DNA of 64,000 nucleotides from Dehalococcoidales bacterium. Lineage in GTDB: Bacteria > Chloroflexota > Dehalococcoidia > Dehalococcoidales > UBA5627. Position 1 is the first letter of the stretch; each line of letters starts with the position of its first letter. The notes beneath the pieces were generated by a model that was given only the letters and a program-made list of their open reading frames with translations, had not been told where the DNA came from and made no database searches. The position numbers were made by a program, and so were the translations under genes. Positions 10,792-31,101 of this stretch are shown one piece after another. The DNA is taken from positions 98,873-162,872 of the forward strand of contig JBBAED010000001.1 in the NCBI GenBank assembly GCA_041656115.1, given 5' to 3'.

Positions 10792-12192
10792 CTACTTACC
10801 CGTCGCTTTCCGCGGCGTATAACTTCTCCCGGCTTCCACAAGCAGCGCCAGGCTCATCAAAAAATCATCGTGCCCTTGAGACGGATCAACAAAAAAGTTC
10901 ATCAATTGGTTGGGTCGATAAAAACTTCGTGCTTTCTCAATCTGTTCCCAAAATTCGGCGTATTCCGCAGACCCATCTCCTTGATACATCTTCAATCGTC
11001 CGGAATTAACGGCAGCCAGCAGATTAAAGCCCAATTGCGATTTGGAGCTTGAACTAAAGACAAAAGGGATAACCTTTGCTCCCAGCGCTTTTCTTAAAAA
11101 AGAGCTCACTGTCAGCCCGATACCGGTAGAATCAATTACAATCTTACGGCAGTTCCAGATATTGCCCAAAATATCGGCCAGCTGCGGATACAAATCGGTA
11201 TGCTTCTTACCGTTCCAACGATAATGTTCGACGATTTTAAGCCTCGGCTCGTTTTGTACACTGTCTAAAGCGGAATAATCAAGTTCACCTACGGTTATCA
11301 CCGTTGAATCCTGCTTCGGATTTAAGGTTTTTAGAAGATAATCTTCCGCCGCTTCACCGGCAATATCGACCCCCGCAACATAAACTTTGCCCCTCTCCGG
11401 CCGGTTTAACCTTTGATGGTTTCCCTGTAACTGTGCTCTTTGCTGTGCGTCCAGAAAACCGCCTCCTCCGCTAATCGGCAGTAGACGGTATTGAGTACGA
11501 AAAAGAGGATGATTTTCTCCGAGCCGCGCCCTTTCCGTTTCTATGTATTGCAGATAGTCAGGGTTATATTTTGCCACTTCCTGCCAATCGTAACGATAAT
11601 GCCGTTTAATTCCGTCTTTCTTTTCCAGTTCCAGATTATGTTGCTTGATTTCTTCAAGGAGTGTCTGCTCGTCCCAAGCGGTGCCGTAATGCACGGTGGT
11701 TACGTTGGTTGTACTGCCCATCGGTTTAAAGTCTTTGTTATATTTATCTTTGCCGATATCTTGCGATTCATCGATTTCCAGCAGTATATGAGCGGTATTC
11801 CCGACGACATTGGCCGATTCCTCTGCCGAAAGGAAAACAGCGCGGCAAAAACCCAGCCTGATAATATGCCCCTGCTCGGTTGTATAAATACCGGTAAAAC
11901 CGGCATCAATGAGCCTATCCTTGAGCCTTGACATTGAAATCAGCGCTTGCGGCTTAAAGGTCGGGGCGCACTTAATCAGATTTTTAGAGTTTGGCATAAA
12001 GATAGTCATCAACAGCAGTTCTATTTGTGCCGAAAGCTCATTCTTACCCCCTTGGCGTGCTATTTCCACCGAAAAGGTATGTCCTTTGCGATTCAAAACA
12101 CTCCCTAATACGGCGACGGCAATTTCTTTTTGATAGGGGCGTAATCTATTTATCAAATATCTTCCCGATGGTGATACCGAGCGGCAAGGCAA
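10792..12192 (-). CDS. terL: Phage terminase large subunit (ATPase + RNase H-like nuclease)
   Basis: Walker A-like ARQGGKNE, Walker B LLEIDESQD, then the C-terminal nuclease segments YVAGVDIAGE and DDFLMSLALL. The longest ORF starts at a TTG at 12192. An alternative TTG at 12156 would overlap the upstream stop by 11 nt. Confidence 0.8.
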   Translation of the reverse strand: MPCRSVSPSGRYLINRLRPYQKEIAVAVLGSVLNRKGHTFSVEIARQGGKNELSAQIELLLMTIFMPNSKNLIKCAPTFKPQALISMSRLKDRLIDAGFTGIYTTEQGHIIRLGFCRAVFLSAEESANVVGNTAHILLEIDESQDIGKDKYNKDFKPMGSTTNVTTVHYGTAWDEQTLLEEIKQHNLELEKKDGIKRHYRYDWQEVAKYNPDYLQYIETERARLGENHPLFRTQYRLLPISGGGGFLDAQQRAQLQGNHQRLNRPERGKVYVAGVDIAGEAAEDYLLKTLNPKQDSTVITVGELDYSALDSVQNEPRLKIVEHYRWNGKKHTDLYPQLADILGNIWNCRKIVIDSTGIGLTVSSFLRKALGAKVIPFVFSSSSKSQLGFNLLAAVNSGRLKMYQGDGSAEYAEFWEQIEKARSFYRPNQLMNFFVDPSQGHDDFLMSLALLVEAGRSYTPRKATGK

Positions 12193-12502
12193 TATCCCTT
12201 AAAACATTTGCAATCGCCTCTTTAAGCCCGCTTTTATCGTTTTTATCGATACTGTATCTGGTTCTGACCAAACCGCCGAGAGTGGTTAGAGCTTTCATAA
12301 TTAAATCCATATTTTCCGGGTCGTGCCTTAATACAGACTTAATTTTGGTTCGCAATAAGGCTATTTCATCGTCAATACCGTAAACGACGGTTGCCATTTC
12401 AAAATCATTTTGTTCATCTTCGTCAAGCACTCGCGAGTAAAAACCGTGCTTGCGAGCATATTGGTTGCCTATCGGTGCGCCTTTTCTTGTTCTTTCAGTC
12501 AA
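12146..12502 (-). CDS. Small terminase-like protein (GNxxAxKHGxYS motif)
   Basis: The N-terminal RKGAPIGNQYARKHGFYS is a motif I associate with phage small terminase/DNA-recognition subunits. Sits immediately upstream of and overlapping terL. AAGGAG lies 7 nt before the TTG start. Confidence 0.55.
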   Translation of the reverse strand: MTERTRKGAPIGNQYARKHGFYSRVLDEDEQNDFEMATVVYGIDDEIALLRTKIKSVLRHDPENMDLIMKALTTLGGLVRTRYSIDKNDKSGLKEAIANVLRDIALPLGITIGKIFDK

Positions 12503-12547
12503 TTCTTTACTCCTTTACACCAAATTGTTCTCCGCTTATTTACGGCG

Positions 12548-12571
12548 ATAATAATAGCACATATGTTCTTA
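12548..12571 (-). promoter_or_regulatory. Shared operator/extended -10 element, copy T (upstream of the terminase operon)
   Basis: Read in gene orientation: TAAGAACATATGTGCTATTATTAT, ending 45 nt before the TTG start. It is 21/24 identical to the copy at 23245-23268. Contains the imperfect palindrome AGAACA-TA-TGTGCT and TGC-TATTAT. Confidence 0.6.
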
Positions 12572-12686
12572 GCATTATATGAAATATTGTCGTTATTTTG
12601 TGACTTTTGTCTGGTACAAGGTATTATTAATGTTGTATAATAACGTCATACACAGGGATGTATAAATTAATTTATGGAGGTTGTAC

Positions 12687-12842
12687 ATGAAAATTATTAC
12701 CCTTTGTGGCGAAAAGAGCTGCTGCCCGGTGGTAAAAATCGACGAAGAAAAGGTCGAAATCGGTGAAGAAGGAAACCTCTGCGTTCTGAAAAGAAGCGAA
12801 TGGGAGACCCTGAAAAAGAAAATTTTGGAGAATGAAGCCTAG
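12687..12842 (+). CDS. Small Cys-containing protein (51 aa), unknown function
   Basis: MKIITLCGEKSCCPVVKIDEEKVEIGEEGNLCVLKRSEWETLKKKILENEA. GGAGG lies 7 nt upstream of the ATG and a strong terminator follows. Below the size cutoff of the ORF track. Divergent from the terminase operon. Confidence 0.6.
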   Translation: MKIITLCGEKSCCPVVKIDEEKVEIGEEGNLCVLKRSEWETLKKKILENEA

Positions 12843-12863
12843 TTTAAAGCGCTTTTACGTGGA

Positions 12864-12897
12864 AGAGGGCGGGGATAAAAACCCTGCCCTCTTTTTA
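12864..12897 (+). terminator. Rho-independent terminator
   Basis: Stem AGAGGGCGGGG / CCCTGCCCTCT (one G.T pair), 7-nt loop, then a T tract. Confidence 0.75.
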
Positions 12898-12910
12898 TTT
12901 ACCCGAAAAT

Positions 12911-13676
12911 TGAACCATAACGGCTGACGGATTGTAATCCTCGTTTTCTCCCCGTTCGTTGAACCCTTCGACAAGCTCAGAATGACAATAATAGAAACGT
13001 CTTTGCGAGGAATGAGCCTTTAGGCGAGTGACGCGGCAATCTCATTTTGTCATCCTGAACGCAGTGAAGGATCTAAGAGGACAGGAAGTATAGGCTATGA
13101 GGTCGCCTCAGAAACAAAAAAGAGGCATCGTCCAGACGTGATTTGCTAATCGAACGGTATACTATTCGCTAACCCCCAGATTCTTCGACAAGCTCAGAAT
13201 GACAAGTTATAATCGTCTTTGCGAGGAGCGAGCCTTTAGGTGAGCGACGTGGCAATCTCCTACGAATTTATTAGAGATTGCTTCGCTACGCTCGCAAAGA
13301 CAAAGGTAATGTCATCCTGCTTTTCCCATTTGTCATCCTGAACATAGTGAAGGATCTAAGAGGACGGGAAGTGCAGGCTATTAGGTTGCCTCGGCATCAA
13401 AGAAGAGGCATCGTCCTACGATTAAATCCGCAACCGAACACTGCACTATCCGCTAACCCCTAGATTCTTCGGCAGGCTCAGAATGACAATAATAGAAATG
13501 TCTTTGCGAGGAATGAGCCTTTAGGCGAGTGACGCGGCAATCTCCAAGGAATTAATCTATATGAGATTGCTTCGCTGTGCTCGCAAAGACAAGGGGAATT
13601 GCTTCGCTACGCTCGCAAAGACATGATAGCAAAGACAAAGGAGAGATGCATCGCTTTCCTATCGAGAATGGTCTTA
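12911..13676. repeat. Intergenic modular repeat array 3 (truncated Z, A, Y, A-D, Y, A-D, D, D-variant; plus orientation)
   Basis: Same modules as arrays 1 and 2. Ends with a D-variant GCATCGCTTTCCTATCGAGAATGG, also seen reverse-complemented at 32628-32655. Confidence 0.95.
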
Positions 13677-13838
13677 CATGAGTAAAATTAATTTCCCTCC
13701 ACATCGAACAAGCTTAATTAAATACGGTGTAGCTTAATTTAAAGCTCTGGTTTATAATATCTAATAAACAAACCTTTTTGTTAAGTTTTAGAACCGGCAT
13801 ACGCCCTGATTGTTGCTTAAAAGGAGTTCAATTAATAT

Positions 13839-15536
13839 ATGCGCTTATCACAGTTATTCGGAAAGACTCAAAGGGAGATTCCGGCAGAAGCCGATACAGT
13901 CAGCCATCAACTGATGCTGCGTACCGGCATGATTCGCCAGCTTACCGCCGGTGTTTATTCGTATTTACCGTTGGCGCTTCGTGCGTTGTATAAAATAGAA
14001 AATATTATCAGAGATGAAATGGACAAAGCCGGCGGGCAGGAAATATGTATGCCGGTCTTACAACCGATTGAACTCTGGGAAAAATCGGGTAGGGTTAGCG
14101 GATTTGGGAAAAATCTGTTCCGCTTATATGACCGCAAAGAACGCGAATTGGCGCTGGGGCCCACTCATGAAGAAGTTGTGACCGATTTGGTTGGGCGCAC
14201 CGTTCAGAGTTACCGTGAACTGCCTTTGCTTTTATACCAAATCCAAACCAAATTCCGTGACGAACTGCGTCCCAGAGGCGGGCTGGTACGCGTACGTGAA
14301 TTTGTGATGAAAGACCTTTACAGTTTTGATACCGATGCCGAAGGGTTAGATATCAGTTACCGTAAAATGGTTACCGCTTACGAAAATATCTTTGCCAGAT
14401 GCGGGCTGCCGGTTATTATGATTGAAGCCGATAGCGGAGCAATCGGAGGCAAAGATTCCAATGAATTTATGGCCGTTTCCGAAATGGGCGAAGATGAAAT
14501 TATCTACTGCAAAAATTGCGGGAATGCCGCTAATGCCGAAAAGGCAAAAAGTATCAAACCCGAAGCCAACAACGGCGAACCGCTGGCGACGGAGGAAGTT
14601 GCCACCCCCGGTTGTAAAACTATCGCAGAAGTGTGTAACTACTTGGGAATCGAACCGATAAATACGTTAAAAGCCGTTTTCTATGTTGCCGACGAAGAAT
14701 TTATTTTTGTTTGTTTGCGCGGCGATATAGATGTAAACGAAGTAAAATTAAAGAACCTTTTACGCTGTGCCGAACTAAGGCTGGCAACCGAAGAAGAAGT
14801 TACCGCCAAAGGGATAGTTGCCGGATTTGCATCGCCAATCGGGCTCAAGAACGTGAAAGTTGTGGTTGATGAATCGGTTGGCGTCGGAACAAACTTTGTT
14901 GCCGGCGGCAATAAAACCGATTTTCATATTAAAAACGTCAACTTCCCCAGGGATTTTGAAGCTGATTTAATTGCCGATATTGCGCTGGCAGCCGTCGGTG
15001 ACGGTTGTGCAAAATGCGGTTTCGAATTATCTGTTGATCGCGGTATAGAGTTAGGGCATGTATTTAAACTGGGGACTTTCTTAAGCGAAAAGCTGGGAGC
15101 CTATTATATTGACGCAAACGGCGAATCAAAACCGATAGTGATGGGCTGTTACGGTATCGGTGTCGGCAGGTTAATGGCAGCCGCCATTGAGGTTAACCAT
15201 GACGATAAAGGCATTATTTGGCCTAAAAATATTGCCCCCTATCAGGTTCATATTTGCCCGCTATTTATGGAAAACTTACAAGTTGCCGAAAAAGCGGAGG
15301 AACTCTACAAAGAATTGGAACTCTGTGGCATAGAGGTACTTTACGATGACCGCAACGAATCTACCGGAATTAAATTTAACGATGCCGACCTTTTAGGAAT
15401 TCCGCTGCGAATTACCGTTAGCCCGCGTTCACTGGAAAAAGGGTGCATCGAAATAAAGCGGCGTTCGGAAAAAACGGCGGAGCTTATTCCCGTTAACGAA
15501 GCGATTGAAAAGGTTAAGGCAATACTGGCGGGCTAG
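13839..15536 (+). CDS. proS: Prolyl-tRNA synthetase, bacterial type with INS editing domain
   Basis: MRLSQLFGKTQRE, class II motifs (REFVMKDLYSFD, GCYGIGVGRL) and a central ~180-aa insertion. GGAG RBS. Confidence 0.95.
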   Translation: MRLSQLFGKTQREIPAEADTVSHQLMLRTGMIRQLTAGVYSYLPLALRALYKIENIIRDEMDKAGGQEICMPVLQPIELWEKSGRVSGFGKNLFRLYDRKERELALGPTHEEVVTDLVGRTVQSYRELPLLLYQIQTKFRDELRPRGGLVRVREFVMKDLYSFDTDAEGLDISYRKMVTAYENIFARCGLPVIMIEADSGAIGGKDSNEFMAVSEMGEDEIIYCKNCGNAANAEKAKSIKPEANNGEPLATEEVATPGCKTIAEVCNYLGIEPINTLKAVFYVADEEFIFVCLRGDIDVNEVKLKNLLRCAELRLATEEEVTAKGIVAGFASPIGLKNVKVVVDESVGVGTNFVAGGNKTDFHIKNVNFPRDFEADLIADIALAAVGDGCAKCGFELSVDRGIELGHVFKLGTFLSEKLGAYYIDANGESKPIVMGCYGIGVGRLMAAAIEVNHDDKGIIWPKNIAPYQVHICPLFMENLQVAEKAEELYKELELCGIEVLYDDRNESTGIKFNDADLLGIPLRITVSPRSLEKGCIEIKRRSEKTAELIPVNEAIEKVKAILAG

Positions 15537-15619
15537 CTCAGCCCGGCTTTTTCCGATTTTTTGTTATTTATTGCTATAATAAAGACCTAAACATTACAAA
15601 AAAGGATGGGGAAATATTT

Positions 15620-16105: not shown

Positions 16106-16133
16106 CTTCTAAAAAAATAGAACAAAATGAAAA

Positions 16134-16166
16134 CGCCCTGCCGATAACCGACAGGGCGTAATTTTT
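16134..16166. terminator. Bidirectional terminator between convergent genes
   Basis: Stem CGCCCTG / CAGGGCG with an 11-nt loop. It is flanked by an A-run upstream and a T-run downstream. Confidence 0.65.
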
Positions 16167-16181
16167 ACCGAAACAAACCGA

Positions 16182-18578: not shown

Positions 18579-18580
18579 AA

Positions 18581-19744: not shown

Positions 19745-20502
19745 TATCATTCTGAGTACCATCTCATTTGTCTTTGCGAGCGCAGCGAAGCAATCTCTAA
19801 TAAATCAAGAGGTATTCATTTGTTGGAGATTGCCACGTCACTCGCCTAAAGGCTCGTTCCTCGCAAAGACGTTACTATTATTGTCATTCTGAGCTTGTCG
19901 AATAATCTGGGGGTTAGCGGATAGTGTAGTGTTCGGTAACGTATTTTAGGACAGGACTATGTCTCTTTTTTGATTCTGAGGGTACCTCATAGTCTATATT
20001 TCTCGTCCTCTTAGATCCTTCATTTCATTCAGGATGACAAAGAGGAAAAGCAAGGTGACAAAAAAAGCCCGTTCGCCCTGAGCTTGTCGAAGGGTCCAAC
20101 GAACGGGTGAAAACGAAGATTACCATCCGACCGCCGTTATGGTTCGACAGGCTCACCACGAACGGCTGAGGTATTTCTTTTTGTCTTTGCGAGTGCAGCG
20201 AAGCAATCTCTAATAAATCAAGAGGTATTCATTTGTTGGAGATTGCCACGTCACTCGCCTGACGGCTCATTCCTCGCAAAGACGTTTATAACTTGTCATT
20301 CTGAGCATAGCGAAGAATCTAGGGGTTAGCGAATAGTGCAGCGTTCGGCAATGGATTTTATGGTAGGACGATGCCTCTTTCGTAATTCCGAGGCAACCTA
20401 ATAGCCTACATTTCCCGTCCTCTTAGATCCTTCATTTCATTCAGGATGACAAGGGCGAGATTGCCATGTCACTTGCCTAAAGGCTCACTCCTCGCAAAGA
20501 CA
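19745..20502. repeat. Intergenic modular repeat array 4 (minus orientation)
   Basis: Reverse complements of modules D, A, Y, Z, D, A, Y and A. Examples are AGATTGCCACGTCACTCGCC...CCTCGCAAAGAC, TTCCCGTCCTCTTAGATCCTTCATTTCATTCAGGATGACAA and GGTTCGACAGGCTCACCACGAACGG. Confidence 0.95.
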
Positions 20503-20514
20503 GTATCGTTTCCT

Positions 20515-20549: not shown

Positions 20550-20582
20550 ATTGATTTCGAATTCTAAATTCAGTTCGGGTTT

Positions 20583-23045
20583 TTAGTAGGAGCTGTAGGC
20601 CATTCTTCTGCCCAACCAGACAGCAAAGATAAATACAACCACAACACCGAGGCCAACCCAAAGCCATGTTAACCAGGCGGGGAATCCACCGCCGACTACA
20701 AACGTGTTCACCGCGGAAGGGGATGAAGCGTTACCGGCAGCATCGGTAGCAATCACTCTCCAGTAATAGTGCCCGTTATCAGCCAGTTTTGCCAGTTTTT
20801 CGGCATCGGTTAGGGTATAAGTTGTGTTTGATAAATTGCGCTCAATTACTTTACTGTTGAAATTGCTATCGGTTGCAATCTGCAAGGTATAAGTTATCGG
20901 CAGGCTCAAATCGCTAACCGCACCCCATTCAAAAGTAACAATCCCTTTCTGTTTGGTGGTGCTTAACGGAGACGTCAATGCCGGTGCGGGGGGCGGGGTT
21001 GTTTCCATATCAAAAGTTAATTCAACTGAAGCGATACTGTCGGTTACCCCAATTGCATTCTCACCGCCGTGGCTGGCCGGAATAATAAAGGCAACATTAA
21101 AATTGCCTGCGGAGCCAACAACAATCGGAGTGGATGATTGTAAGGCAGCACCATTGTAAGTAATGGTAACGCTCTTGTTGGGGGTAAAACCTTCACCCTT
21201 AATAGTAACCTGATTGCCAACGTTGCCGCCGGTCGGACTGATTGTAGCGCTGGCGTTAACCGTAAATTTGACAACTTTAGCGGTAGTCCCATCACTAATA
21301 ATAAGGGTCTGTTCACCGCCGGCAATCGAAGGAATTATGAACCCGGCAGCAAAGCTGCCATCGCCATCAACAAGCGCTTCATTTACTTTATTGTCACCAA
21401 TCATAAGCGTTGCTTTTTTGCCTGCCGCAAAATAAGAACCGGTAACGATAATCATATCGCCGACTTCACCTTGGTTGACATCTAAGGTAACGGAAGGCTC
21501 AACTATATTGAATTCAACGCTTTTTACGGAACCGGCTGTGACGGTTACATCGTATTTACCGGGGCTCTTTGCGGGAACAATGAAGTTTAACGAGAAACTG
21601 CCCTTTGCGCCGGTAGTCACGTCACCGCCGTTTATGTCGATATCGTTGTCTCCGAATTCCAAACCAATATTCGTACTGGCAGCAAAACCGTTACCTTCAA
21701 CAGTAATTTTCATTCCACCGATACCCTCGGTTTTGTTTATATTTAATTTGGGTTCGACGGTAAAGCTCTTTTCGACGTTACCGACTTTAATTGAATGAAC
21801 ATTGCAAGTACTCTCGGGGATAATAATATCTTTGGTAAACTTTCCGGAAGTACTGACAGTGGCGGTACCGACAGATACGCCGTCAAACAGGATGGTAACT
21901 GTGCTTCCGGAAGTGAAAGTATTGCCGTTTACGGTAATTGTATCGCCAACGTTTCCTTTATTTTTACTTAATTCAATTACGGAATTTAAAAGGATTTCAA
22001 AATGCCCGGTATAATTAATCGAGCTTTTATTGCTATCCTCAGCTTTAATTGCATAAGAACCGGGGAGCGTAGTTTCGGGAATAACATAGGTAACGGTAAA
22101 AGAACCAAAATTATTTGTTCTTTTGTAGGTGCTGTCAACGAGCCATGTTATTTCGGTAGGGGATATAATTGTCCCGTTAAGGAAGAAATTTACACCGCTC
22201 CTGTAATCAAATCCTGTACCTTTAATGGTAAGCAATGTACCTGCTTGGCAAACATCGGGCGTTATCGATAAAGATGCCTTTACCGTGTACTTAAACTCAA
22301 AGGTTGCTTGAGAATCTTCACCGGTAACTTTAACTTTTTGTTCACCGTTTACTGCATCAGGAACTAAAAGTTCTAAATTGAATGAACCGTCGATACCCGT
22401 CCAAGGCTCTCCTATTTCACTGGTTATATCTCTGCCGGCAAATGTCACTATCAGGGCTTCGTCTTTGGCAAAGCCGGTACCGGAAATCACAACTTCATCA
22501 CCGACAAACCCGCTGGTAGTATCGATTGATGCCGATGCAATGCCGTGCATATAAAATTCGGTAACATATAATATTTTAGTACCTTTGCTTTCCTCAACAA
22601 CCCCGGATGCAGGCGTGTATTCTGTGACATAGAGATAATAAGTTCCGCCGTGCATAGTGTGCAGTTTGTCTGCACCGTCAGTTAAACTGCTGGGAATTGT
22701 TAAAGTGTTAACAAAGGCACTGTCACCGGGTGAAGTGCTTAGAATACCAACCCATTCTTTATAGGCTTTAACTTCGGTATCAATATCGTCCCCAACCTTG
22801 GCTTTCTGACTGGAGAAAAACAGAGAAAATCTATGTGCTTGGGAACCGGTTAGTGTAACCGAAAAATTGTCGCCTTTTACACCCTCCGATTTGTTGTAAT
22901 AGGTGTTGTTGGTAGCATTCCCTTGAATATTTTTAATAACCAGACTGCTAACAGTCGCCGCCGAAGCAATAGAGGCCGGAAGAGCCGTCAGCATCAACGC
23001 CAACGTAATAAACACCCCCAGCACTCGTAACATTTTCTTTTTCAC
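20583..23045 (-). CDS. Large secreted cell-surface (S-layer-like) protein with about six IPT/TIG-like repeats, an Fn3-like module and a C-terminal TM anchor
   Basis: Signal peptide (M)KKKMLRVLGVFITLALMLTALPASIASA, from a GTG at 23045 that lies 6 nt after GGAGG. GxVGDxhxhxGxGF recurs every ~85-90 aa (GFVGDEVVISGTGF, GNVGDTITVNGNTF, GEVGDMIIVTGSYF, GNVGNQVTIKGEGF and others). C-terminal hydrophobic helix WLWVGLGVVVVFIFAVWLG followed by RR. Confidence 0.75.
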   Translation of the reverse strand: MKKKMLRVLGVFITLALMLTALPASIASAATVSSLVIKNIQGNATNNTYYNKSEGVKGDNFSVTLTGSQAHRFSLFFSSQKAKVGDDIDTEVKAYKEWVGILSTSPGDSAFVNTLTIPSSLTDGADKLHTMHGGTYYLYVTEYTPASGVVEESKGTKILYVTEFYMHGIASASIDTTSGFVGDEVVISGTGFAKDEALIVTFAGRDITSEIGEPWTGIDGSFNLELLVPDAVNGEQKVKVTGEDSQATFEFKYTVKASLSITPDVCQAGTLLTIKGTGFDYRSGVNFFLNGTIISPTEITWLVDSTYKRTNNFGSFTVTYVIPETTLPGSYAIKAEDSNKSSINYTGHFEILLNSVIELSKNKGNVGDTITVNGNTFTSGSTVTILFDGVSVGTATVSTSGKFTKDIIIPESTCNVHSIKVGNVEKSFTVEPKLNINKTEGIGGMKITVEGNGFAASTNIGLEFGDNDIDINGGDVTTGAKGSFSLNFIVPAKSPGKYDVTVTAGSVKSVEFNIVEPSVTLDVNQGEVGDMIIVTGSYFAAGKKATLMIGDNKVNEALVDGDGSFAAGFIIPSIAGGEQTLIISDGTTAKVVKFTVNASATISPTGGNVGNQVTIKGEGFTPNKSVTITYNGAALQSSTPIVVGSAGNFNVAFIIPASHGGENAIGVTDSIASVELTFDMETTPPPAPALTSPLSTTKQKGIVTFEWGAVSDLSLPITYTLQIATDSNFNSKVIERNLSNTTYTLTDAEKLAKLADNGHYYWRVIATDAAGNASSPSAVNTFVVGGGFPAWLTWLWVGLGVVVVFIFAVWLGRRMAYSSY

Positions 23046-23244
23046 TAATTTCCTCCCCAATAAAATTCTCGACAATCAATTCTTGTGTTTTATATCTGTT
23101 TTTGTTGTTATACAGAATAAACGTATGAGCCTTTTTTGTCAAGCTAATCCATACGTAATTAATAACGTCCGCGGCTATAAAAAGTTACCTTTTTGGCAAT
23201 AATATTTTTTGCCGTCCGCTTGTGACAGGACGTTATTGACCTAT

Positions 23245-23268
23245 TTAGAACATTTGTGCTATTTTTAT
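23245..23268 (+). promoter_or_regulatory. Shared operator/extended -10 element, copy H (upstream of the head operon)
   Basis: TTAGAACATTTGTGCTATTTTTAT, ending 50 nt before the ATG at 23319. TTGACC at 23236-23241 lies 18 nt upstream of TATTTT. 21/24 identical to copy T. Confidence 0.6.
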
Positions 23269-23318
23269 ACCACTCGGCAAGATATGAGCTGAAGGAATAG
23301 ATTACGGAGTTGTAAGTT

Positions 23319-23639
23319 ATGGATATAGATTTACCCGCTAACGCTGAGTCGGACCCGCTCCCCGAAAATTACCATTACAGAGATGAAGGCTGCGAGCTCG
23401 CCAATTCCTGCTTAAACTGCCCTTTCCCGCAATGCGTTCTCGAGGAAACGGGCGGAATAAGGAAGTTTCTCAAGGAACAGCGAAACAATGAAATTATAAT
23501 CCTCTATAACAACGAAAAAAGGGATGTTAAGGAACTGGCGGTTATCTTTAAATTAAGCGTACGCACTATCCAAAGGGCGCTCGCAAACCGACGGCAAGCA
23601 CACCTGAGCACAACTCGAAAGGAGACCAATGACAAATAA
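23319..23639 (+). CDS. Cys4 + helix-turn-helix protein (phage-type regulator or DNA-recognition subunit)
   Basis: C-x5-C-x2-C-x4-C cluster (GCELANSCLNCPFPQC), then an HTH (DVKELAVIFKLSVRTIQRAL). Overlaps the portal gene start by 11 nt. Confidence 0.5.
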   Translation: MDIDLPANAESDPLPENYHYRDEGCELANSCLNCPFPQCVLEETGGIRKFLKEQRNNEIIILYNNEKRDVKELAVIFKLSVRTIQRALANRRQAHLSTTRKETNDK

Positions 23640-25011
23640 CAATTTTAACCCGCAGGTTTTGGAGCAAACGGATTTAACACGGGTTCATAACTATCGCCGA
23701 ATGCTGGATTTCTATAACGGCAACCAATGGCAAACGGGGAATGCTTACGGTGAAAAACAGCTTTCTTTTAACTATGCGCGGGCGGTTATTGATAAGACGA
23801 CCGCTTATATGATGGCCGGAGCCTATTGCAAAGCGGATGCTTCGGATGACACCAAAGAGGCAAGGGATAAAGCCGCCGCTGCGGAGAGGGTTTTGGGGCA
23901 AATATATGCCGATAATCGCTTGGAGCAGCTTGATTTCGATACCGAGACCGATTGCGCCATATTGGGAGATGCCTGTTATAAAGTAACTTGGGATACGGCA
24001 AATAAACGTGTAAGAATCACCGCCCCCGATGTATCCGGTATTTACGCTTGGTGGCCGGGCGACGACAGCTCCAAAATATGGCGTGTTGCCTCCCAATATA
24101 GCCTTAGCGCCGATGAAAGCGCCATGCTTTACGGCGTTAAGGTAAAAGAGAAAGCGGTAAAAATAACCGAAGTTTGGACGGAAAATCTCTTTGAATTATG
24201 GGTGGATAATAACCTGATTGAAAAGAAAATTAACCCCTACGGGTTTATACCGTTTGTTATTTTCCCAAACTTGCGCGAGCCCAAAAAGTTTTGGGGGAAA
24301 TCGGATATTACCCAACTGGCGGAACCTCAATGCGAACTGAACCGTGCCATAAGCCAGCTTGCGCGCATACTGGAACTTTCCGGTAATCCGATTGCGGTTT
24401 TGGAGAATGTGGAGGAATCCGAAGATATTGCGGTCAGCCCGGGGGCGGTTTGGAACATTCCCGAAGAAGCCAAGGCTTACCTGTTGGATTTATTACAGGG
24501 GGGTGGAGTCAACTTGCATATTGAGTATATTAACCTGCTTTACCGTACTTTGCATGACCTCGGCGAATCGCCGCGCGCCACATTCGGCACTACGTCCGGC
24601 AATACCTCGGGGGTCGCATTGGAAATTGAAATGCAACCCCTTTTGCAAAAAGTCTGGCGTAAAAGGCTGATTCGCAACACCGTCTACTGCGAACGCAACA
24701 GGCTTGCATTAAAACTCTTTTCCAAATACACGGGAGAGGATTTCGGTAATTTAAACTTGCGTATGGTTTGGAGCCCCGTGCTTCCGCGCGATATGGCAGG
24801 ACTGGCGGCAAACGAACAAATACTGGTTCAAAACGGAATCCATTCCAGGCGTACCGCAATGTCGCAAATCGGTATTAAGCACCCCGATTCCGAATTTAAC
24901 GATTGGCTTACGGAAAGAGCCTCCATTCTAAAAATGAATAACGAAAACAATCCAAGAACCGCCGGCAAAACGCGAGAGAGGGCAATAAGCGCTGCAAATG
25001 AAGGATTTTAA
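23629..25011 (+). CDS. Phage portal protein (SPP1 gp6-like)
   Basis: 460 aa. N-terminal YRRMLDFYNGNQW resembles the YYxGxH/Q signature of SPP1-type portals. Sits in the canonical position before scaffold and capsid, translationally coupled on both sides. Confidence 0.7.
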   Translation: MTNNNFNPQVLEQTDLTRVHNYRRMLDFYNGNQWQTGNAYGEKQLSFNYARAVIDKTTAYMMAGAYCKADASDDTKEARDKAAAAERVLGQIYADNRLEQLDFDTETDCAILGDACYKVTWDTANKRVRITAPDVSGIYAWWPGDDSSKIWRVASQYSLSADESAMLYGVKVKEKAVKITEVWTENLFELWVDNNLIEKKINPYGFIPFVIFPNLREPKKFWGKSDITQLAEPQCELNRAISQLARILELSGNPIAVLENVEESEDIAVSPGAVWNIPEEAKAYLLDLLQGGGVNLHIEYINLLYRTLHDLGESPRATFGTTSGNTSGVALEIEMQPLLQKVWRKRLIRNTVYCERNRLALKLFSKYTGEDFGNLNLRMVWSPVLPRDMAGLAANEQILVQNGIHSRRTAMSQIGIKHPDSEFNDWLTERASILKMNNENNPRTAGKTRERAISAANEGF

Positions 25012-25489
25012 GATTACAGCAGAGGTAAACAAATTGAGTAAATCAGACCAAATACAAACAGAAGATATCTTGCAAGAGGAATCCGAAAAAGATGATTTGA
25101 ACGACCTAAAAGCAAAACTCGGCGAAGCGGAAAAGATATCCGCCGGAAAAGAACTCAAAATAAATGCGCTGGAAAGGGAAATTGCCGACTTGGCAAAAAG
25201 GCACCGGGAGGCTGAAAACAAACTGGCCGATGCGGTATCAAACTATAAAACTTTGGCAATCGGTAATCACGCCGAAATACCGGCGGAGCTGGTGGGCGGG
25301 GCAAGTATTGAGGAAATTAACAACTCCTTAATCAGCGCCAAAATATTGGTCGATAAAATCAGGCGCGGGCTGGAAAACGAGGTAATGGCAACGCAGATTC
25401 CGATTGGCGCGCCGGTAAGAAGGGATTTTGATATATCAGGTCTGTCGCCGATTGAGAAAATTAAATACGCAATGAATAAGAGTAAGTAA
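24998..25489 (+). CDS. Scaffolding-like coiled-coil protein
   Basis: 163 aa, highly charged heptad-rich sequence (EESEKDDLNDLKAKLGEAEK...). Position between portal and capsid. Confidence 0.6.
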   Translation: MKDFKITAEVNKLSKSDQIQTEDILQEESEKDDLNDLKAKLGEAEKISAGKELKINALEREIADLAKRHREAENKLADAVSNYKTLAIGNHAEIPAELVGGASIEEINNSLISAKILVDKIRRGLENEVMATQIPIGAPVRRDFDISGLSPIEKIKYAMNKSK

Positions 25490-25582
25490 ATCCGTTTGCG
25501 GAGCACGTTATGGATAGTCCGAAGAGGCTTAACAAATCTGCAGCGGTCAACAATAAATCAGTTAAAAAGGAGAAATAATTTA

Positions 25583-26503
25583 GTGGCTTTAACATTAACC
25601 GAAGCATCAAAATTATCAAATGATATGTTAATACGCGGAGTGGCGGAAACCGTTATTAAAGATTCGCCGATACTGCAAAAACTGCCTTTTATCGAAGTGA
25701 TGGGTAACAGCTTGACCTATAACCGTGAAAACACTCTGCCCGGTATTGATTTTTACGATGTCGGGGAATCTTGGAAAGAATCCACTCCCACCTTTGAACA
25801 GAAGACTGCCACATTAAAAATAATCGGCGGCGATGCCGATGTGGATAACTTCTTAAAGGCGACACGCAGTAATATTCAAGATTTGGAAGCTGCCGTAATC
25901 GAAATGAAAGCCAAAGCGTTACGGCATAAATTCGAAGAAATTTTTATCTACGGGGATTCGGAGTTGAACGCAAAGCAGTTTGACGGTATCCGTAAGCTGA
26001 TTGATACGGAAACAGAAAGTAATCGGGTAATTTCGGTATCGGCAACGGGCGGTTCCCTGACGCTGGACTGCTTGGATGAACTTATTGATGCCGTAAAGGG
26101 TGATAAGCCGGATATGCTGCTAATGAGCCGTCGTTTAAGGCGCAAAATCAATTCATTGGTGAGAGGCACCGGCAGTATGCTGGCAACCGAATCCGATAAC
26201 TGGGGTAATTTTATTCAACTGTGGGACGGGATTCCGATTGGGGTTAACGACTGGATTTTAGATACGCATATCGTGGAAGACGGGGTGGAAACGGCAGTAA
26301 TCGGCGGAGGGTGTTCTACTATTTATGCACTCCAATTCGGAGAAGGAGCGCTCTGCGGTCTTTCCGGGCCGGGATTTTTACAGGTGGAATCGCTTGGGCA
26401 GCTTGAAAACAAAGATGCCTCGCGCACACGCGTCAAGTGGTATTGTTCCATGGCGCTCTTTTCATCGGTTAAGGCGGCGGCTCTGATTGGGGTTAAGGAT
26501 TAG
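25583..26503 (+). CDS. Putative major capsid protein (HK97-fold inferred)
   Basis: About 306 aa from GTG 25583, which has AAGGAG 8 nt upstream. The track ORF begins at a TTG at 25496. The call rests on size and position after the scaffold; the fold is not verifiable by eye. Confidence 0.6.
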   Translation: MALTLTEASKLSNDMLIRGVAETVIKDSPILQKLPFIEVMGNSLTYNRENTLPGIDFYDVGESWKESTPTFEQKTATLKIIGGDADVDNFLKATRSNIQDLEAAVIEMKAKALRHKFEEIFIYGDSELNAKQFDGIRKLIDTETESNRVISVSATGGSLTLDCLDELIDAVKGDKPDMLLMSRRLRRKINSLVRGTGSMLATESDNWGNFIQLWDGIPIGVNDWILDTHIVEDGVETAVIGGGCSTIYALQFGEGALCGLSGPGFLQVESLGQLENKDASRTRVKWYCSMALFSSVKAAALIGVKD

Positions 26504-26512
26504 GACAGAATT

Positions 26513-27505
26513 GTCTTTGCGAGGAACGAGTGTTTAGCGAATGATGTGGCAATCTAGCTCTTGTCATCCTGAACGAAGTGAAGGATCTAAGAGGACAGAA
26601 ACACAGGCTATGAGGCGTCTTCTGCAACAAAAAAGAGGCATCGCTCTATCGTATAAAGAGTAACCGAACTGTACACTATTCGCCAACCCCTAGATTCTTC
26701 GGCAGGCTCAGAATGACAAAGGAGGAGTCTACAACGACAAAAAGGAAGCCCTAGCCGTTCGTGGTGAGCTTGTCGAACCATAACGGCGGTCGAACAGTAA
26801 TCCTCGTTTCTTCCCGTTCGTGAGACCCTTCGACAGGCTCAGGGCGAACAAGTTTTTTAACGTCTTTGCGAGGAGTGAGCCGTTAGGCGAATGACGTGGC
26901 AATCTCGCTTTTGTCATCCTGAATGAAATGAAGGATATAAGAGGACGGGAAATATAGGCTATGAGGCATCCTCAGAATTATAAAAGAGGAATCGCTCTAC
27001 CGTATAAAGAGCACCCGAACGGTGGACTATTCGTCGACTCCCAGATTCTTCGGCAAGCTCAGAATGACAATACTAGGAATGCCCCAGCCGTTCGTGGTGA
27101 GCTTGTCGAACCATAACGGCGGTCGAACAGTAATTCTTGTTTCTCCCCGTTCGTGGAACCCTTCGACAAGCTCAGGGCGAACGAGTTTTTTAACGTCTTT
27201 GCGAGGAGAGAGCCGTCAGGCGAATGACGTGGCAATCTCACCCTTGTCATCCTGAATGAAATGAAGGATCTAAGAGGACGGGAAGCACAGGCTATTAGGT
27301 GACCTCGGCAATAAAAAAGTGGCATCGCTCTATCGTATAAAGAGTAACCGAACACTGCACTATTCGTTAACCCCTAGATTCTTCGGCAGGCTCAGAATGA
27401 CAATAGTAGAAACGTCTTTGCGAGGAGTGAGCCGTCAGGCGAATGACGCGGCAATCTCCTACGAATTTATTAGAGATTGCTTCGCTGCGCTCGCAAAGAC
27501 AAAGG
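26513..27505. repeat. Intergenic modular repeat array 5, inside the phage-like operon (A, Y, Z, A, Y, Z, A, Y, A-D; plus orientation)
   Basis: The largest array at ~1 kb. It has three near-tandem A-Y(-Z) super-units. Confidence 0.95.
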
Positions 27506-28239
27506 AAATTGCTCGTCTTTCCGGTCAGGAACGGACTCGCAAAGACACAGAAAACAGAGCGTCCGAAGCAGGAGAACTTGCAAAAACAAAGGAGGAAAAC
27601 AAAACGACATTAACCAAACTTAAAGAATACGTCAGAATCGATTTGCACGATAACGACTCAAATAACTACCGCTGGGATGACAGCGAGATAGAAAGGCACA
27701 TCTTACACGCCACAAACGACCTTTCAATCGCCATTCCGCTGCAACGAACAGCAACAATCCCAACAACCGGCGGCTCAAGAGATGTTGATATTTCGCAAAT
27801 TACGGATAGGATTTCAATCTATGCGGCAGGATATCCGCTTCATCTCTTCCCGCGTTATTATCGCCGCTTTATAGTTAATACTAACGTACTCACGCTTACG
27901 GACGGGCCTGTTCCCAACGGTGAGAATATCTGCATCTACTATAAAAAAGCATATTCCGTAACCGAGGCAGAATCCGAAATCCCGTCGCATTTGGAAGAAT
28001 TGGTTATTTGCGGCGCTTGCGGGTACGCCGCCGTGGAGCTGGCAATCTATTCCGTAAACCGGATTAACACCGGCGGCGATTATACCGCCAAAGAATTCCT
28101 GCGCTGGGGTGAAGCGAAAATCAATTATTTTCGAGGCGAGCTAAAGAAACGAGGCCATAACAACCGTTTACGCATAAACCGTTTGTACAGAGCCTATCAG
28201 TTACCTTTCCCGAAAATATCGGCGGTTAAGCAATTTTAA
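27319..28239 (+). CDS. Phage-like structural protein (possible head completion/adaptor), 5' end uncertain
   Basis: The non-repeat part begins about 27590 (TLTKLKEYVRIDLHDND...IERHILHATNDL), which resembles the start of gp6-like head-tail connectors. The N-terminal ~60 codons of the track ORF are repeat-derived. AAGGAGG at 27588-27594 is not followed by an in-frame ATG, GTG or TTG. Confidence 0.45.
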   Translation: MASLYRIKSNRTLHYSLTPRFFGRLRMTIVETSLRGVSRQANDAAISYEFIRDCFAALAKTKEIARLSGQERTRKDTENRASEAGELAKTKEENKTTLTKLKEYVRIDLHDNDSNNYRWDDSEIERHILHATNDLSIAIPLQRTATIPTTGGSRDVDISQITDRISIYAAGYPLHLFPRYYRRFIVNTNVLTLTDGPVPNGENICIYYKKAYSVTEAESEIPSHLEELVICGACGYAAVELAIYSVNRINTGGDYTAKEFLRWGEAKINYFRGELKKRGHNNRLRINRLYRAYQLPFPKISAVKQF

Positions 28240-28253
28240 CCGCCGACCGCTAA

Positions 28254-28490
28254 TTATTTCTTTGTTGTAAATACAACGGCAAAGAGAATCATTACCAATA
28301 TGACACAAAGGGCATTTAATAAACCGGCAATCGCATTGCCGCCGATAAAACTGTCGGCGAACAGCAGTAAACTGCCGGCTCCGTAAAAGATAGGCAGCAG
28401 TAAGTTAACCGATTTATCTTTCCTGGATATCACCTGATAAATCTGAACAATCCAACCGGCAAAGATAAACAAAAATCCAAAATATAACAT
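28254..28490 (-). CDS. Small 3-TM membrane protein (holin-like topology, speculative)
   Basis: 78 aa with three hydrophobic segments and a basic C-terminus (TTKK). GGAGG RBS (the plus strand shows CCTCC at 28503-28507). Confidence 0.45.
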   Translation of the reverse strand: MLYFGFLFIFAGWIVQIYQVISRKDKSVNLLLPIFYGAGSLLLFADSFIGGNAIAGLLNALCVILVMILFAVVFTTKK

Positions 28491-28619
28491 TGTGTTGCCA
28501 ACCTCCTTTTACGTATCCTAAAATCCGGCCGATATTCGGGATGTTCCAAATGTATCGGCCAGAAGCATTATATACAAAAACAATAATAATAAACAATTGC
28601 AACTAAAGGAAACTATTTT

Positions 28620-28886
28620 ATGAATATTTATAAAGCAATTTGGAAGGTTATCGGCGGCAGGCCGTGGACATATATTTTGCGTGATATTTGGCATAAATAC
28701 GAAGGCTTATGCATTATCGGGCTGGTGACAATCGGTATATTTCTGGGGCATTGGCTAAGGCCTCACTTACTTTGGATGTTTTTAACTTTTACATCGGGAT
28801 ATATTGCCGGACACCTCTTTTGGGGCAAGGAGTATATTCCCAATCAGAAAGGAGACGAACAAGCGGATGATAAATCTGACCGATAG
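28620..28886 (+). CDS. Small membrane protein
   Basis: 88 aa with two hydrophobic helices and an acidic C-terminal tail. Overlaps the next gene by 20 nt. Confidence 0.45.
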   Translation: MNIYKAIWKVIGGRPWTYILRDIWHKYEGLCIIGLVTIGIFLGHWLRPHLLWMFLTFTSGYIAGHLFWGKEYIPNQKGDEQADDKSDR

Positions 28887-30864
28887 CCTGTTAAGAGCCC
28901 AAAGAGAGCCAAGCCGCATCCCTTACATAAAGCTGGTCGCTTCCAATAAAATAAGCGGAGGATTAAATCTGAAATGGCAAAGGGTTTATAACGGAAACGA
29001 AACGGAATATTTTCATGCGCTGGCGGTAACCTCAGACGGTTCGTTAATCCGAGCGAGGATTACCCATCCCGCCGACTCCCGCAAACTTTATATTCAACGG
29101 ATTGCCAACCCAAACGAAGAACCTGACTTTAGCTTGTGGCAATATACCGGCCAATACAATGCGGTTATTGTTGCCGCCGCGGCACTGGGGGATACGGTAT
29201 CAGTCTTTTGGATTAAAAGCGACCGTAAAATCCAACAGATTGTAAGCAGCGATTGCGGGATAACCTGGTCGGAAGCCAATATTATCGATTACACCCCGAC
29301 AACGGCTGTTAACGGCATTTGCGCCGCTTATAAACCGAACGGTGATTTGGCGTTATTTTTTGCCGATCAGACAACCCTTTATATCAAACAAAAAATTAAC
29401 GGGGAATGGCAACCCAAAGCCGCATGGGATAAAACAAGCGGAGAACTTTCGGGGGTATCGGCGGTTTACGACAGCGATTGGAACATCTTTATTACCGGTA
29501 AGGATATTATCGGTAATTTTTGCCTCAGAAGCCTGGTTTACGGAGACGGCGGGGTGTTACCTGTTGGGGGGTGGGGAGAACCGCAAACAATTGCCGAAGC
29601 GCCGTCTGAGGGCAGTTTTGGCTACTACTATGCCTTTTTGGATAAGCCCGATCTTTTTAGGTGCTTTTATATTGAAAAATACAGCGGAATTGGATCTTAT
29701 TCCCGGCCTTTCCATATCCAAACCGCGGAGAACTTCGGTGATAACCTATGGCAAGAGCCGCAACCTTTTGATATAACATCTGAATACGGGCTGGCAATAG
29801 CGCACGATAAAAACTATTCTTGGCTGTCTTGCGCTAACGGTGTTTGGAAAGCGCCGCTTAAAACAGAACAAATCGACCTTTCGAGCCGTATTGTTGCCCT
29901 TAAACAAAAGACAATTTGCGCCGAAGGCAAGCTAACCGTAGAACTTCTTGGCGGTAATACCGGTTTGGAATTAGAGCCCCCGCTTGAAATCGGCTGCCGG
30001 CTGGACTTAAGCCTCGGCTATCTAACCGCAAACGGGTTTGAAAGCGGTAAAACGGAATCTTTTACCCTGCAGGCCTGTGAGTTTATAAACTCCAACGGCT
30101 TGGCAAAATTGGTTTTGCATGCAACAAACGGGTGGGGAAAAATAAGCTGCTGGGCTGCCAAACAACAATACCGCTGGAATGCCGAAGGTTCGGAGCAAAA
30201 TATTCTTGATTTGTTGAAATTTATATTGGCAAGGGCGGGAGTCCGCACCGCGGTTATTTCTGCATCAGAGGCAATCAAAAATTTGTACCCCGATTTTAAT
30301 ATCAACCCCGGAATGAAAGGGGATGACATTATAAACAAATTAATGTCGCTTGTTCCTGACCTGCTTTTTACGGAAGGCGATACCGCTTATATTGTTAATC
30401 CTTTAACAAATAGCGAATCATCTTATGTGTATTCCTTTCCTCAAACGGACGGCATTCATCCGATTAACCGTACCGGATACAAAATATCCGCCCCAAGATT
30501 TAATCATATTCGCGTTGAGGGGTTTAGTGGTTACAACAATTTGCCGTTAATTGGCGATTATTACGATTACGAAGATATAAAAAAGAGCGGCGAGGGTTTT
30601 CTTTCGATTCAAGACGGTAATATCGGCACTGTAAATGATGCCGAAAAGCGTGTGGAATACACTTTTAATAAAGATCGCAGTTTTAACGATTTAGGATATA
30701 TCGAAGTGCCGACAAACTGCGGACAGCAAATTTACGATGTTATCGGCATAAACGACAGCGTTGCGGGGCTTATAAATGTCAAAAGGCGGGTTATCGGTCT
30801 TGAAACCGTTTTTGAAACCCGCATCGGAAAGTATAGCCAAACTTTGCTGTTGGGAAAGGTTTAA
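28867..30864 (+). CDS. Large phage-like protein with N-terminal BNR/Asp-box (sialidase-like propeller) region
   Basis: Start chosen at MINLTDSLL (ATG 28867, AAGGAG upstream). Canonical Asp-box SSDCGITW plus degenerate copies (TSDGSLI, YDSDWNIF). The C-terminal 350 aa are unassigned. Confidence 0.55.
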   Translation: MINLTDSLLRAQREPSRIPYIKLVASNKISGGLNLKWQRVYNGNETEYFHALAVTSDGSLIRARITHPADSRKLYIQRIANPNEEPDFSLWQYTGQYNAVIVAAAALGDTVSVFWIKSDRKIQQIVSSDCGITWSEANIIDYTPTTAVNGICAAYKPNGDLALFFADQTTLYIKQKINGEWQPKAAWDKTSGELSGVSAVYDSDWNIFITGKDIIGNFCLRSLVYGDGGVLPVGGWGEPQTIAEAPSEGSFGYYYAFLDKPDLFRCFYIEKYSGIGSYSRPFHIQTAENFGDNLWQEPQPFDITSEYGLAIAHDKNYSWLSCANGVWKAPLKTEQIDLSSRIVALKQKTICAEGKLTVELLGGNTGLELEPPLEIGCRLDLSLGYLTANGFESGKTESFTLQACEFINSNGLAKLVLHATNGWGKISCWAAKQQYRWNAEGSEQNILDLLKFILARAGVRTAVISASEAIKNLYPDFNINPGMKGDDIINKLMSLVPDLLFTEGDTAYIVNPLTNSESSYVYSFPQTDGIHPINRTGYKISAPRFNHIRVEGFSGYNNLPLIGDYYDYEDIKKSGEGFLSIQDGNIGTVNDAEKRVEYTFNKDRSFNDLGYIEVPTNCGQQIYDVIGINDSVAGLINVKRRVIGLETVFETRIGKYSQTLLLGKV

Positions 30865-30882
30865 TTTAGAGGGATATAATTT

Positions 30883-31101
30883 ATGATAATAGGAAAAGCA
30901 TTGTTAAAGAGTTTTAGCGCCGCAAACCATACCGCGGCGGTAATGCTAAGCGGAAATTATAAAACGATTACGGAAGGGATAAACGTAGCGCGTAATATTT
31001 CTGTTGGCGAGATGATTCCCGGAAGATACGTAGCCGTCCTTTTTTATGACAGTTACAGTGCCAAAGATGCACTGATAATCGCTGTTTACGACATACGGTA
31101 G
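30883..31101 (+). CDS. Small hypothetical protein, last gene of the phage-like block
   Basis: 72 aa with GAGGGA RBS. Its last few codons and its stop codon lie inside the first module of repeat array 6. Confidence 0.4.
   Translation: MIIGKALLKSFSAANHTAAVMLSGNYKTITEGINVARNISVGEMIPGRYVAVLFYDSYSAKDALIIAVYDIR

Follow-up and report, generated by a model that had tools for sequence, protein, structure and literature searches.

A conserved phage-derived packaging and capsid gene cluster in Dehalococcoidales as a candidate gene transfer agent-like module

Genes at the locus

We analysed a 64-kb stretch of one Dehalococcoidales genome (hereafter, the window; assembly GCA_041656115.1, contig JBBAED010000001.1, positions 98,873 to 162,872) that carries phage-type packaging and head genes in two blocks, and we scanned its large open reading frames (ORFs) with hidden Markov models (HMMs) from Pfam, PHROG and NCBIfam. 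This cluster, which we read as a probable gene transfer agent (GTA)-like particle-making module, has core chromosome genes as its neighbours (nrdR, nrd, a radical-SAM gene, proS, pheST and rpsU-yqeY), and the window further contains ispG, rseP, dxr, cdsA, uppS, frr, pyrH, tsf, rpsB, a V/A-type ATPase operon and two tRNAs, the latter being the only hits of an Rfam scan of the window. Between the two blocks lie proS, a Zn-ribbon membrane gene, pheT, pheS and the gene of an 820-aa surface protein, as an initial annotation of this DNA had described.

The packaging block consists of two genes on the minus strand. The terL gene (10792..12192, minus strand) encodes a large terminase of 466 aa that matched Pfam Terminase_6C above the cutoff (4.3e-6) as well as four PHROG terL families, and its Walker A (ARQGGKNE) and Walker B (ILLEIDE) motifs and nuclease aspartates were invariant in 16 of 16 aligned orthologues; a profile search against Protein Data Bank (PDB) sequences gave weak matches to TerL nuclease-domain structures only. 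The terS gene (12146..12502, minus strand) encodes a short small terminase of 118 aa, which was recognised by PHROG terS families (best 1.4e-5) and is conserved in 18 loci, while the profile search against PDB sequences returned nothing meaningful for it. Residues 7-31 of TerS align to positions 86-114 of the NCBIfam model TerS_not_xtmA, and alignments to longer TerS models start only at about position 85, so that a sequence-specific DNA-binding domain is probably absent. The TerS of RcGTA, the GTA of Rhodobacter capsulatus, is likewise short and lacks such a domain.

Divergent from terS, at 12687-12842 (plus strand), we found a 51-aa Cys-rich ORF (MKIITLCGEKSCCPVV...) that is followed by a strong terminator. 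It was present in the five closest relatives only, at 84-96% identity and always adjoining terS, and in the window it was relocated together with terS-terL. In one relative (L167, 2964-4448), terL was called as two ORFs of 109 and 314 aa, which is either a pseudogene or an error in the assembly of a metagenome-assembled genome (MAG).

The second block is a structural operon on the plus strand that opens with a small regulator of 106 aa (23319..23639), composed of a Cys-rich, metal-binding N-terminus and a helix-turn-helix (HTH). The HTH and the residues Cys25, Cys31, Cys34 and Cys39 were invariant; the HTH is of the Mor/Hin/sigma-r4 type, Pfam Mor was matched by 22 of 30 orthologues (best 1.5e-6), and there was a weak match to the late activator family phrog_836. 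It is followed by the portal protein (23629..25011, plus strand, 460 aa; SPP1_portal 4.4e-26, phrog_64 3.9e-37), a putative scaffolding protein (25034..25489, plus strand, 151 aa) and the major capsid protein (25583..26503, plus strand, 306 aa). The capsid protein is of the HK97 fold and the epsilon15 gp7 type (phrog_212 2.6e-69; NCBIfam equivalog MCP_gp7_epsi_15 1.1e-61), and its gene starts at 25583 rather than at the TTG at 25496. A prohead protease was not found in the cluster, the scaffold notwithstanding. The HMMs thereby bear out the terminase, portal and capsid calls of the initial annotation, and the invariant cysteines and HTH do the same for its Cys-HTH gene; its scaffold call agrees with the position between the portal and capsid genes and with conservation in 76 loci, and found no HMM match in Pfam or PHROG.

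A small gene of the HTH_17 family (67 aa; MerR/excisionase/AlpA type; e.g., L004 7314-7517, minus strand) stands divergent from the regulator/portal operon in most lineages and was found in 32 loci. This gene was absent from the window and from the five closest relatives, though the operator described below is retained there.

Downstream of the capsid gene lies a head-tail adaptor of the SU10 type (27604..28239, plus strand, ~210 aa), whose extent follows from an alignment of start codons. The family PF24175 (SU10_adaptor) was matched by 30 of 30 orthologues (best 2.3e-12), and the window copy scored 23.7 bits, below the 27-bit cutoff. In three other loci (L034, L037 and L052), the adaptor gene contained a single in-frame stop; either these genes are pseudogenes or the MAG assemblies are at fault. 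Between the adaptor gene and the next conserved gene, an ORF on the minus strand (28254..28490) encodes a 78-aa hydrophobic protein with apparently multiple transmembrane (TM) segments; its occurrence was limited to a subset of the closest relatives (L006, L007, L011 and L085). An 88-aa protein (28620..28886, plus strand), which has two TM helices and whose C-terminus is charged, is kept in 32 loci and could, judged from these features, act as a holin.

The largest gene of this block (28867..30864, plus strand) encodes a 665-aa tail-hub-like protein. The N-terminal beta-propeller of its AlphaFold2 model agrees with the earlier description as an Asp-box protein, and to this the model adds a central hub domain of the gpD/gp27/Mu-gp44 kind: Foldseek searches of PDB and BFVD matched this domain to Mu gp44, P2 gpD, gp27/VgrG-type hubs, and the baseplate hubs of extracellular contractile injection systems and Photorhabdus virulence cassettes. 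A known podovirus nozzle was not among the top structure matches of this model, whose mean predicted local distance difference test (pLDDT) score was 64. By sequence, a tblastn search against 50,697 phage records and a profile search against PDB sequences gave no match to the 665-aa protein. The last conserved gene of the cluster (30883..31101, plus strand; kept in 55 loci) encodes a 72-aa all-beta protein, for which the profile search against PDB sequences found nothing meaningful; its homologue search yielded only 2 sequences, and its AlphaFold2 model reached a pLDDT of 51.

The HMM scans of the large window ORFs detected neither an integrase nor a replication gene, and no tail tube, tape measure or endolysin either; the same scans found no immunity genes in the cluster. 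The claim that the locus lacks integrase, replication, tail and lysis genes stands for these functions, has to be amended for the tail, where an adaptor and a hub-like protein are present, and is uncertain for lysis, given the conserved, putatively holin-like protein with two TM helices.

In many other lineages, a variable module is located between the capsid and adaptor genes (L004 10983-12366; L159 7897-10046; L097 5961-8089; L088 5050-6248). It consists of a conserved protein of 154 or 168 aa, a highly variable protein of 230-620 aa that carries either Gly/Ser/Ala repeats (SGSGAE-type) or a LamG domain, and a protein of ~71 aa. Pfam and PHROG scans of the module in these relatives detected a Laminin_G_3 domain and unnamed PHROGs only. 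The module may supply recognition functions.

The 820-aa surface protein (20583..23045, minus strand) is predicted to be anchored in the membrane by a C-terminal TM segment, and it also contains Ig/TIG repeats and a signal peptide. Its gene always lies between terL and the portal operon, a position kept in 36 loci, has its own promoter and terminator, and evolves fastest within the cluster, with a ratio of nonsynonymous to synonymous substitution rates (dN/dS) of ~0.24. We considered the Ig-repeat protein as a virion fibre and rejected this, because its Sec signal peptide and its TM anchor mark it as secreted and membrane-bound and hence not part of a virion. Possible roles are those of a receptor, an exclusion factor or an S-layer component.

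Distribution, descent and local rearrangement

The capsid protein had 5558 matches, of which the best 120 are ~306 aa long, 75-88% identical, and come from Dehalococcoidales; orthologues overall were 71-88% identical. Among GTDB species representatives (one genome per species), we found capsid relatives in 187 stretches, of which 80 were kept. These 80 derive from MAGs of Dehalococcoidales or Dehalococcoidia, with a few labelled Chloroflexi or Chloroflexota (one Chloroflexia) and two labelled deltaproteobacterial. The latter two (L020 and L042) are probably mislabelled or contaminated bins, and one MAG, STB_164, contains the cluster on two separate contigs (L077 and L080), which suggests a strain mixture or a duplication. 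The wall-less lineage that the initial annotation had proposed for the host is in line with these capsid relatives, the closest named ones being Dehalococcoidales. At 674-4645 of the window, mraZ-mraW is directly followed by ftsA-ftsZ without mur/fts wall-synthesis genes in between, which fits a peptidoglycan-less Dehalococcoidia host.

When we searched these loci by tblastn with all window proteins, we found an identical gene order in about 80 loci, and the order recurs in long contigs of 121 kb to 1.5 Mb: terS and terL on one strand, the surface protein (and, where present, the HTH_17 gene) on the opposite strand, and then, again on the first strand, the small regulator, portal, scaffold and capsid genes, the variable module where it occurs, and the genes for the adaptor, the two-TM protein, the 665-aa protein and the 70-aa protein. 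In the closest relatives and in more distant lineages, the cluster is one contiguous unit of 11-13 kb beside rpsU-yqeY. On contigs between 50 kb and 1.5 Mb in length, one flank is formed by pheST or by a CT398-like/RNase H pair, and the other by rpsU-yqeY, a radical-SAM gene, in some cases an NYN gene, and nrd. The gene tables of six long contigs contained no integrase, no primase or replicase and no attachment (att) repeats, as expected from the earlier proposal of a domesticated system, and no tRNA was located at the cluster borders in the window or in the long contigs of relatives.

The genes of the cluster are under purifying selection. ORF lengths were constant and interruptions rare, with none of 81 capsid genes interrupted, so that the homologues are not riddled with frameshifts. 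Between close relatives, for which dS is unsaturated, dN/dS ranged from 0.05 to 0.24 for every cluster gene, compared to 0.04-0.11 for pheS, rpsU, yqeY and the radical-SAM gene. Pairwise identities of the portal protein followed those of the housekeeping protein YqeY closely (r=0.92, Mantel p<=0.0002), and with identities of 72-96% the capsid protein was better conserved than YqeY (54-91%). Clustering of a library at 50% identity left the whole capsid family in one full-length representative, the next full-length relatives being at <=51%. The best capsid proteins of cultured phages were <=39.5% identical and came from siphoviruses with full tails.

In IMG/VR, 240 contigs listed as viral carried the capsid gene (loci L085-L164). 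These contigs are short fragments of 2-16 kb with the same gene order, one of which runs into rpsU-yqeY, and they are probably not free viruses. In the full-text literature, we found no description of a GTA in Dehalococcoidia or Chloroflexi, nor of a capsid cluster conserved there; a 2026 preprint on the Dehalococcoides element IME1 concerns a different element without tailed-phage genes, with micrographs that mention "possible tail-less capsids".

The division of the cluster into two blocks, which the initial annotation had likened to the multi-locus design of GTAs, turned out to be local. The five closest relatives, whose capsid proteins are 85-88% identical, have pheS, terS-terL, the surface protein gene and the portal block as one contiguous unit, so that the split in the window is derived. 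The separation around the aminoacyl-tRNA synthetase genes is a rearrangement private to this genome. A repeat of ~265 nt that resembles miniature inverted-repeat transposable elements (MITEs) occurs in at least 17 copies in the window, at 71-97% identity and always in intergenic positions. Copies lie at all four junctions of the rearrangement (10264-10682, 12966-13599, 19767-20501 and 32658-33145), with others at 4726-5060, 26509-27509, 31104-31734 and 36801-37321. Frames within these repeats give rise to spurious ORFs, e.g., 'RFFGRLRMTI...SLRG.SRQANDAAIS' and 'MVRQAHHERL'. The opposite orientations of the junction copies would make an inversion possible, and one inversion plus one block move reproduces the gene order of the relatives. 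Recombination among the MITE-like repeats has moved terS-terL ~11 kb away in this genome, with both units keeping their promoter.

Two further regions of the window are of a different nature. At 42345-44000, beside tRNA-Val and tRNA-Lys, an N6/N4 DNA methylase is fused to an Mrr-like nuclease domain. The segment 58000-64000, with a low GC content (33-41% versus ~45%), resembles a foreign or defence-related island; encoded there are a DndB-like protein, a nuclease of the PD-(D/E)XK type and a sigma-70 region 4 protein of 504 aa.

Shared promoter element and proposed mode of action

As stated in the initial annotation, the two blocks are preceded by the same promoter-proximal element. The 22-nt sequence AGAACAT[AT]TGTGCTATT[AT]TTAT occurs exactly twice in the 64 kb, at 12548-12569 (minus strand) and 23247-23268 (plus strand), with 0 occurrences expected in shuffled sequence. 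The terS promoter region (12551..12591, minus strand) comprises a GACAAT box (12585-12591), the LexA-box-like palindrome AAGAACATATGTGCTA (12555-12570, minus strand) and an extended -10 element, TGcTATTAT, and has no -35 element. The portal-operon promoter (23224..23265, plus strand) comprises a GACAGGA box, a -35 element (TTGACC, 23236-23241), the palindrome TAGAACATTTGTGCTA (23246-23261, plus strand) and the extended -10 element TGcTATTTT.

This arrangement is kept at the same two positions in the relatives, which supports the co-regulation of the blocks that had been proposed. In the portal-operon promoters of orthologues, a -35 TTGAC (71 of 71) is followed by the palindrome TAGAAC-N4-GT(G/A/T)CTA, the last bases of which form the extended -10 element (TGcTAnnnT), and a GACAAAA box is located just upstream of the -35 in 69 of 71. 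The terS promoters retain the palindrome and the -10; their GACAA box was found in 14 of 15, and a -35 TTGAC in 0 of 15. Across ~1.3 Mb of related loci, the 16-mer palindrome occurs only at these two promoters. In metagenome contigs, the perfect palindrome was located directly upstream of Peptidase_S24/LexA-like, recA and dinB genes, and likewise upstream of imuB-like, imuA-like and dnaE2-like genes and of one terS orthologue. In Dehalococcoides, the LexA box is GAAC-N4-GTTC. For Bacillus subtilis, the box GAAC-N4-GTTC is documented (PMC4234289). By its sequence, the shared element is a promoter overlapped by a LexA-box-like palindrome. As a 16-bp palindrome of the LexA-box class (TAGAAC-N4-GTgCTA) lies across each of the two promoters, we infer repressor control of the SOS type for the cluster.

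These features suggest how the cluster could work. LexA would most likely hold it off, and DNA damage would fire it. The portal-operon promoter with its good -35 element would fire first and yield the Mor-like activator, which would then switch on the -35-less terS-terL promoter via the shared GACAAAA box. Proheads would be built from the portal, scaffold and capsid proteins, and the short TerS together with TerL would package DNA by the headful with little sequence specificity, the DNA probably being that of the host. The adaptor, hub protein and 70-aa protein would close the portal as a stubby, podovirus-like tail. For release, the small holin-like membrane protein could suffice, since in the absence of peptidoglycan no endolysin would be needed.

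Interpretation and comparison with known systems

We conclude, with a probability of roughly 60%, that the cluster descends vertically from an ancient tailed phage, of which Dehalococcoidales have kept a remnant as a GTA-like particle-making module. In broader terms, we read it as a domesticated particle system of the GTA or PBSX kind, with a short tail and possibly under SOS control, whose use may be transfer or killing and lysis. As in GTAs, structural and packaging genes lie on the chromosome without integration, replication or lysogeny modules, and vertical inheritance and purifying selection extend across the clade; as in podovirus tails, an adaptor ring is predicted to sit on the portal (PF24175). 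We are confident that the cluster is domesticated and host-owned rather than a decaying prophage, in agreement with the initial annotation, as indicated by its presence in the 187 GTDB stretches, its purifying selection and its co-divergence with yqeY. That it produces particles into which DNA is packaged seems probable. The more specific proposal of an order-wide, independently evolved, minimal and short-tailed GTA of about ten genes, triggered by the SOS response, packaging host DNA and released without an endolysin, is tentative.

Several observations weigh against this interpretation. All carrier genomes are MAGs, the analysis covered 64 kb of the source genome, and the defining functions of a GTA, i.e., particles, random host DNA and transfer, are putative here. 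The tail is incomplete by known standards, with no fibre or receptor-binding protein recognised in the window, and the variable module is absent from the clade to which the window belongs. For the 665-aa protein, the structural model (mean pLDDT 64) leaves the C-terminal third unmodelled. In this genome, an array of MITE-like repeats of ~1 kb (26509..27509) is inserted between the capsid and adaptor genes and splits the structural operon, and the ancestral ATG of the adaptor gene (27604-27606) reads ACG. The ribosome-binding site AAGGAGG ahead of the ACG is intact, and the frame continues upstream without a stop as far as an ATG at 27397, which lies in a MITE-like copy and gives a gene-caller product of 280 aa; the earlier statement that all ORFs are intact accordingly holds for the open frames and not for this start codon. 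The divergence from outgroups of the cluster proteins of this genome is 1.01-1.24x that of their counterparts in sister genomes, compared to 0.96-1.08x for neighbouring housekeeping proteins, which we take as a mild hint of somewhat relaxed constraint on the local copy and not as evidence of decay. Lastly, the 3' half-site of the operator reads GTGC in 75 of 86 promoters, one base off the Bacillus GTTC, such that a dedicated repressor instead of LexA is possible; the deviant G provides the TG of the extended -10 element.

The same particle could be put to another use, as a PBSX- or tailocin-like killer or as an SOS-triggered device for lysis or DNA release, with packaged host DNA as a by-product. 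The LexA-box-like control resembles that of SOS-induced defective prophages, and the fast-evolving Ig-repeat surface protein and the hypervariable module of other lineages would fit strain-specific recognition or immunity. Against this stand the missing contractile or flexible tail and the lack of a recognisable toxin or lytic enzyme in the HMM scans; moreover, the ATPase and nuclease motifs of TerS/TerL are under strong constraint, which shows that DNA packaging itself is selected. We regard such a use as unlikely relative to the GTA-like reading. An encapsulin was rejected, as portal, TerS and TerL are all present and constrained.

The remaining explanations fare worse on the comparative evidence. 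Distribution, selection, co-divergence and the fragmentary contigs together exclude, for the family as a whole, a prophage that is recent or in decay, and the same evidence argues against a mobile satellite. A satellite of the capsid-forming kind of phage-inducible chromosomal islands (cf-PICIs), making its own heads and packaging machinery and borrowing tails from a helper phage, would explain why genes for head, packaging and connector are present but none for a tail tube, and the small HTH_17 gene of the AlpA/Xis kind that adjoins the operon in 32 loci of other lineages would suit it; it is nonetheless improbable given the six long contigs free of integrase, primase/replicase and att repeats, the fixed chromosomal position, the co-divergence with yqeY and a hub-like distal protein encoded by the cluster itself. 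A decaying, rearranged prophage remnant without present function could account for the split cluster, the MITE-like insertions, the ACG start and the mildly faster evolution in this genome, as well as for the terL called as two ORFs in L167, but it is slightly less probable still, because ORFs are intact and of constant length in ~80 species-level genomes, dN/dS is 0.05-0.24, the capsid protein is more conserved than YqeY, and promoter and operator are kept at both units, in this genome included. Least probable, and very much so, is a family of active temperate phages with one constant integration site: IMG/VR does list 240 capsid-gene contigs as viral, yet these are short, share the gene order and in one case carry rpsU-yqeY, the cluster measures only 11-13 kb and lacks integrase, replication and immunity genes, its borders hold no tRNA or att sites, and its divergence tracks yqeY. 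A functional or recent prophage was rejected likewise, as the locus is clade-wide and fixed, and integrase, att, immunity and replication modules were not found.

Only a handful of independent domestications of phages into particle makers are known, and to our knowledge every known GTA looks like a long-tailed phage. If the GTA-like reading is true, the cluster would be the first GTA in Chloroflexota and the first that is not built on a long-tailed phage. Being order-wide and taking up ~1% of a streamlined genome, it would imply that a head, a packaging motor and a tail stub suffice for such a system to be kept. Dehalococcoidales are an abundant subsurface order without peptidoglycan and with small genomes, which includes organohalide respirers; the cluster would offer these hard-to-culture bacteria, which matter for bioremediation and subsurface carbon, a route of gene exchange, for instance of reductive dehalogenase islands. 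Furthermore, the 240 IMG/VR fragments can inflate "virus" counts and virus-host links for Dehalococcoidia.

Among known systems, cf-PICIs resemble the cluster in having their own capsid, portal, connector and terminase genes and no tail, but they are mobile and carry an integrase, replication genes and an AlpA regulator, none of which is found in the clade of the window, where the position is fixed. PBSX of Bacillus is an SOS-inducible particle maker that packages host DNA; it is, like the cluster, host-fixed and non-replicating, and the operator of the cluster is LexA-box-like. Besides lysis genes and Xre/sigma regulators, PBSX possesses a complete contractile tail, whereas the cluster has an adaptor and a hub only, at about a third of the size. 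With short-tailed phages that combine an SU10 adaptor with an epsilon15-gp7 capsid, the cluster shares the capsid at equivalog level, the PF24175 adaptor and a scaffold without a prohead protease. It differs from them in that no nozzle, needle, fibre, tailspike or ejection proteins were recognised, and in its distal protein, a hub of the gpD/gp27 type that is commoner in long-tailed phages and contractile injection systems.

The closest parallels are found with GTAs (RcGTA, BaGTA, VSH-1, Dd1 and VTA). These likewise are chromosomal, phage-derived head and packaging clusters that have neither integrase nor replication genes, are passed on vertically within a clade under purifying selection and follow a shared promoter logic, and RcGTA shares the short TerS. 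Membership in the RcGTA family itself was rejected, since no HMM library detected a tail tube or tape measure and the capsid belongs to the epsilon15 gp7 family, though no direct comparison to the genes of RcGTA was made. Compared to the known GTAs, the cluster would be of independent origin, with its epsilon15-gp7-type capsid; it lacks a tail tube, a tape measure and a head-completion set; and it resides in Chloroflexota, in a peptidoglycan-less order, with its particles and their transfer being putative. Its control, finally, looks SOS-like rather than based on CtrA or quorum sensing.

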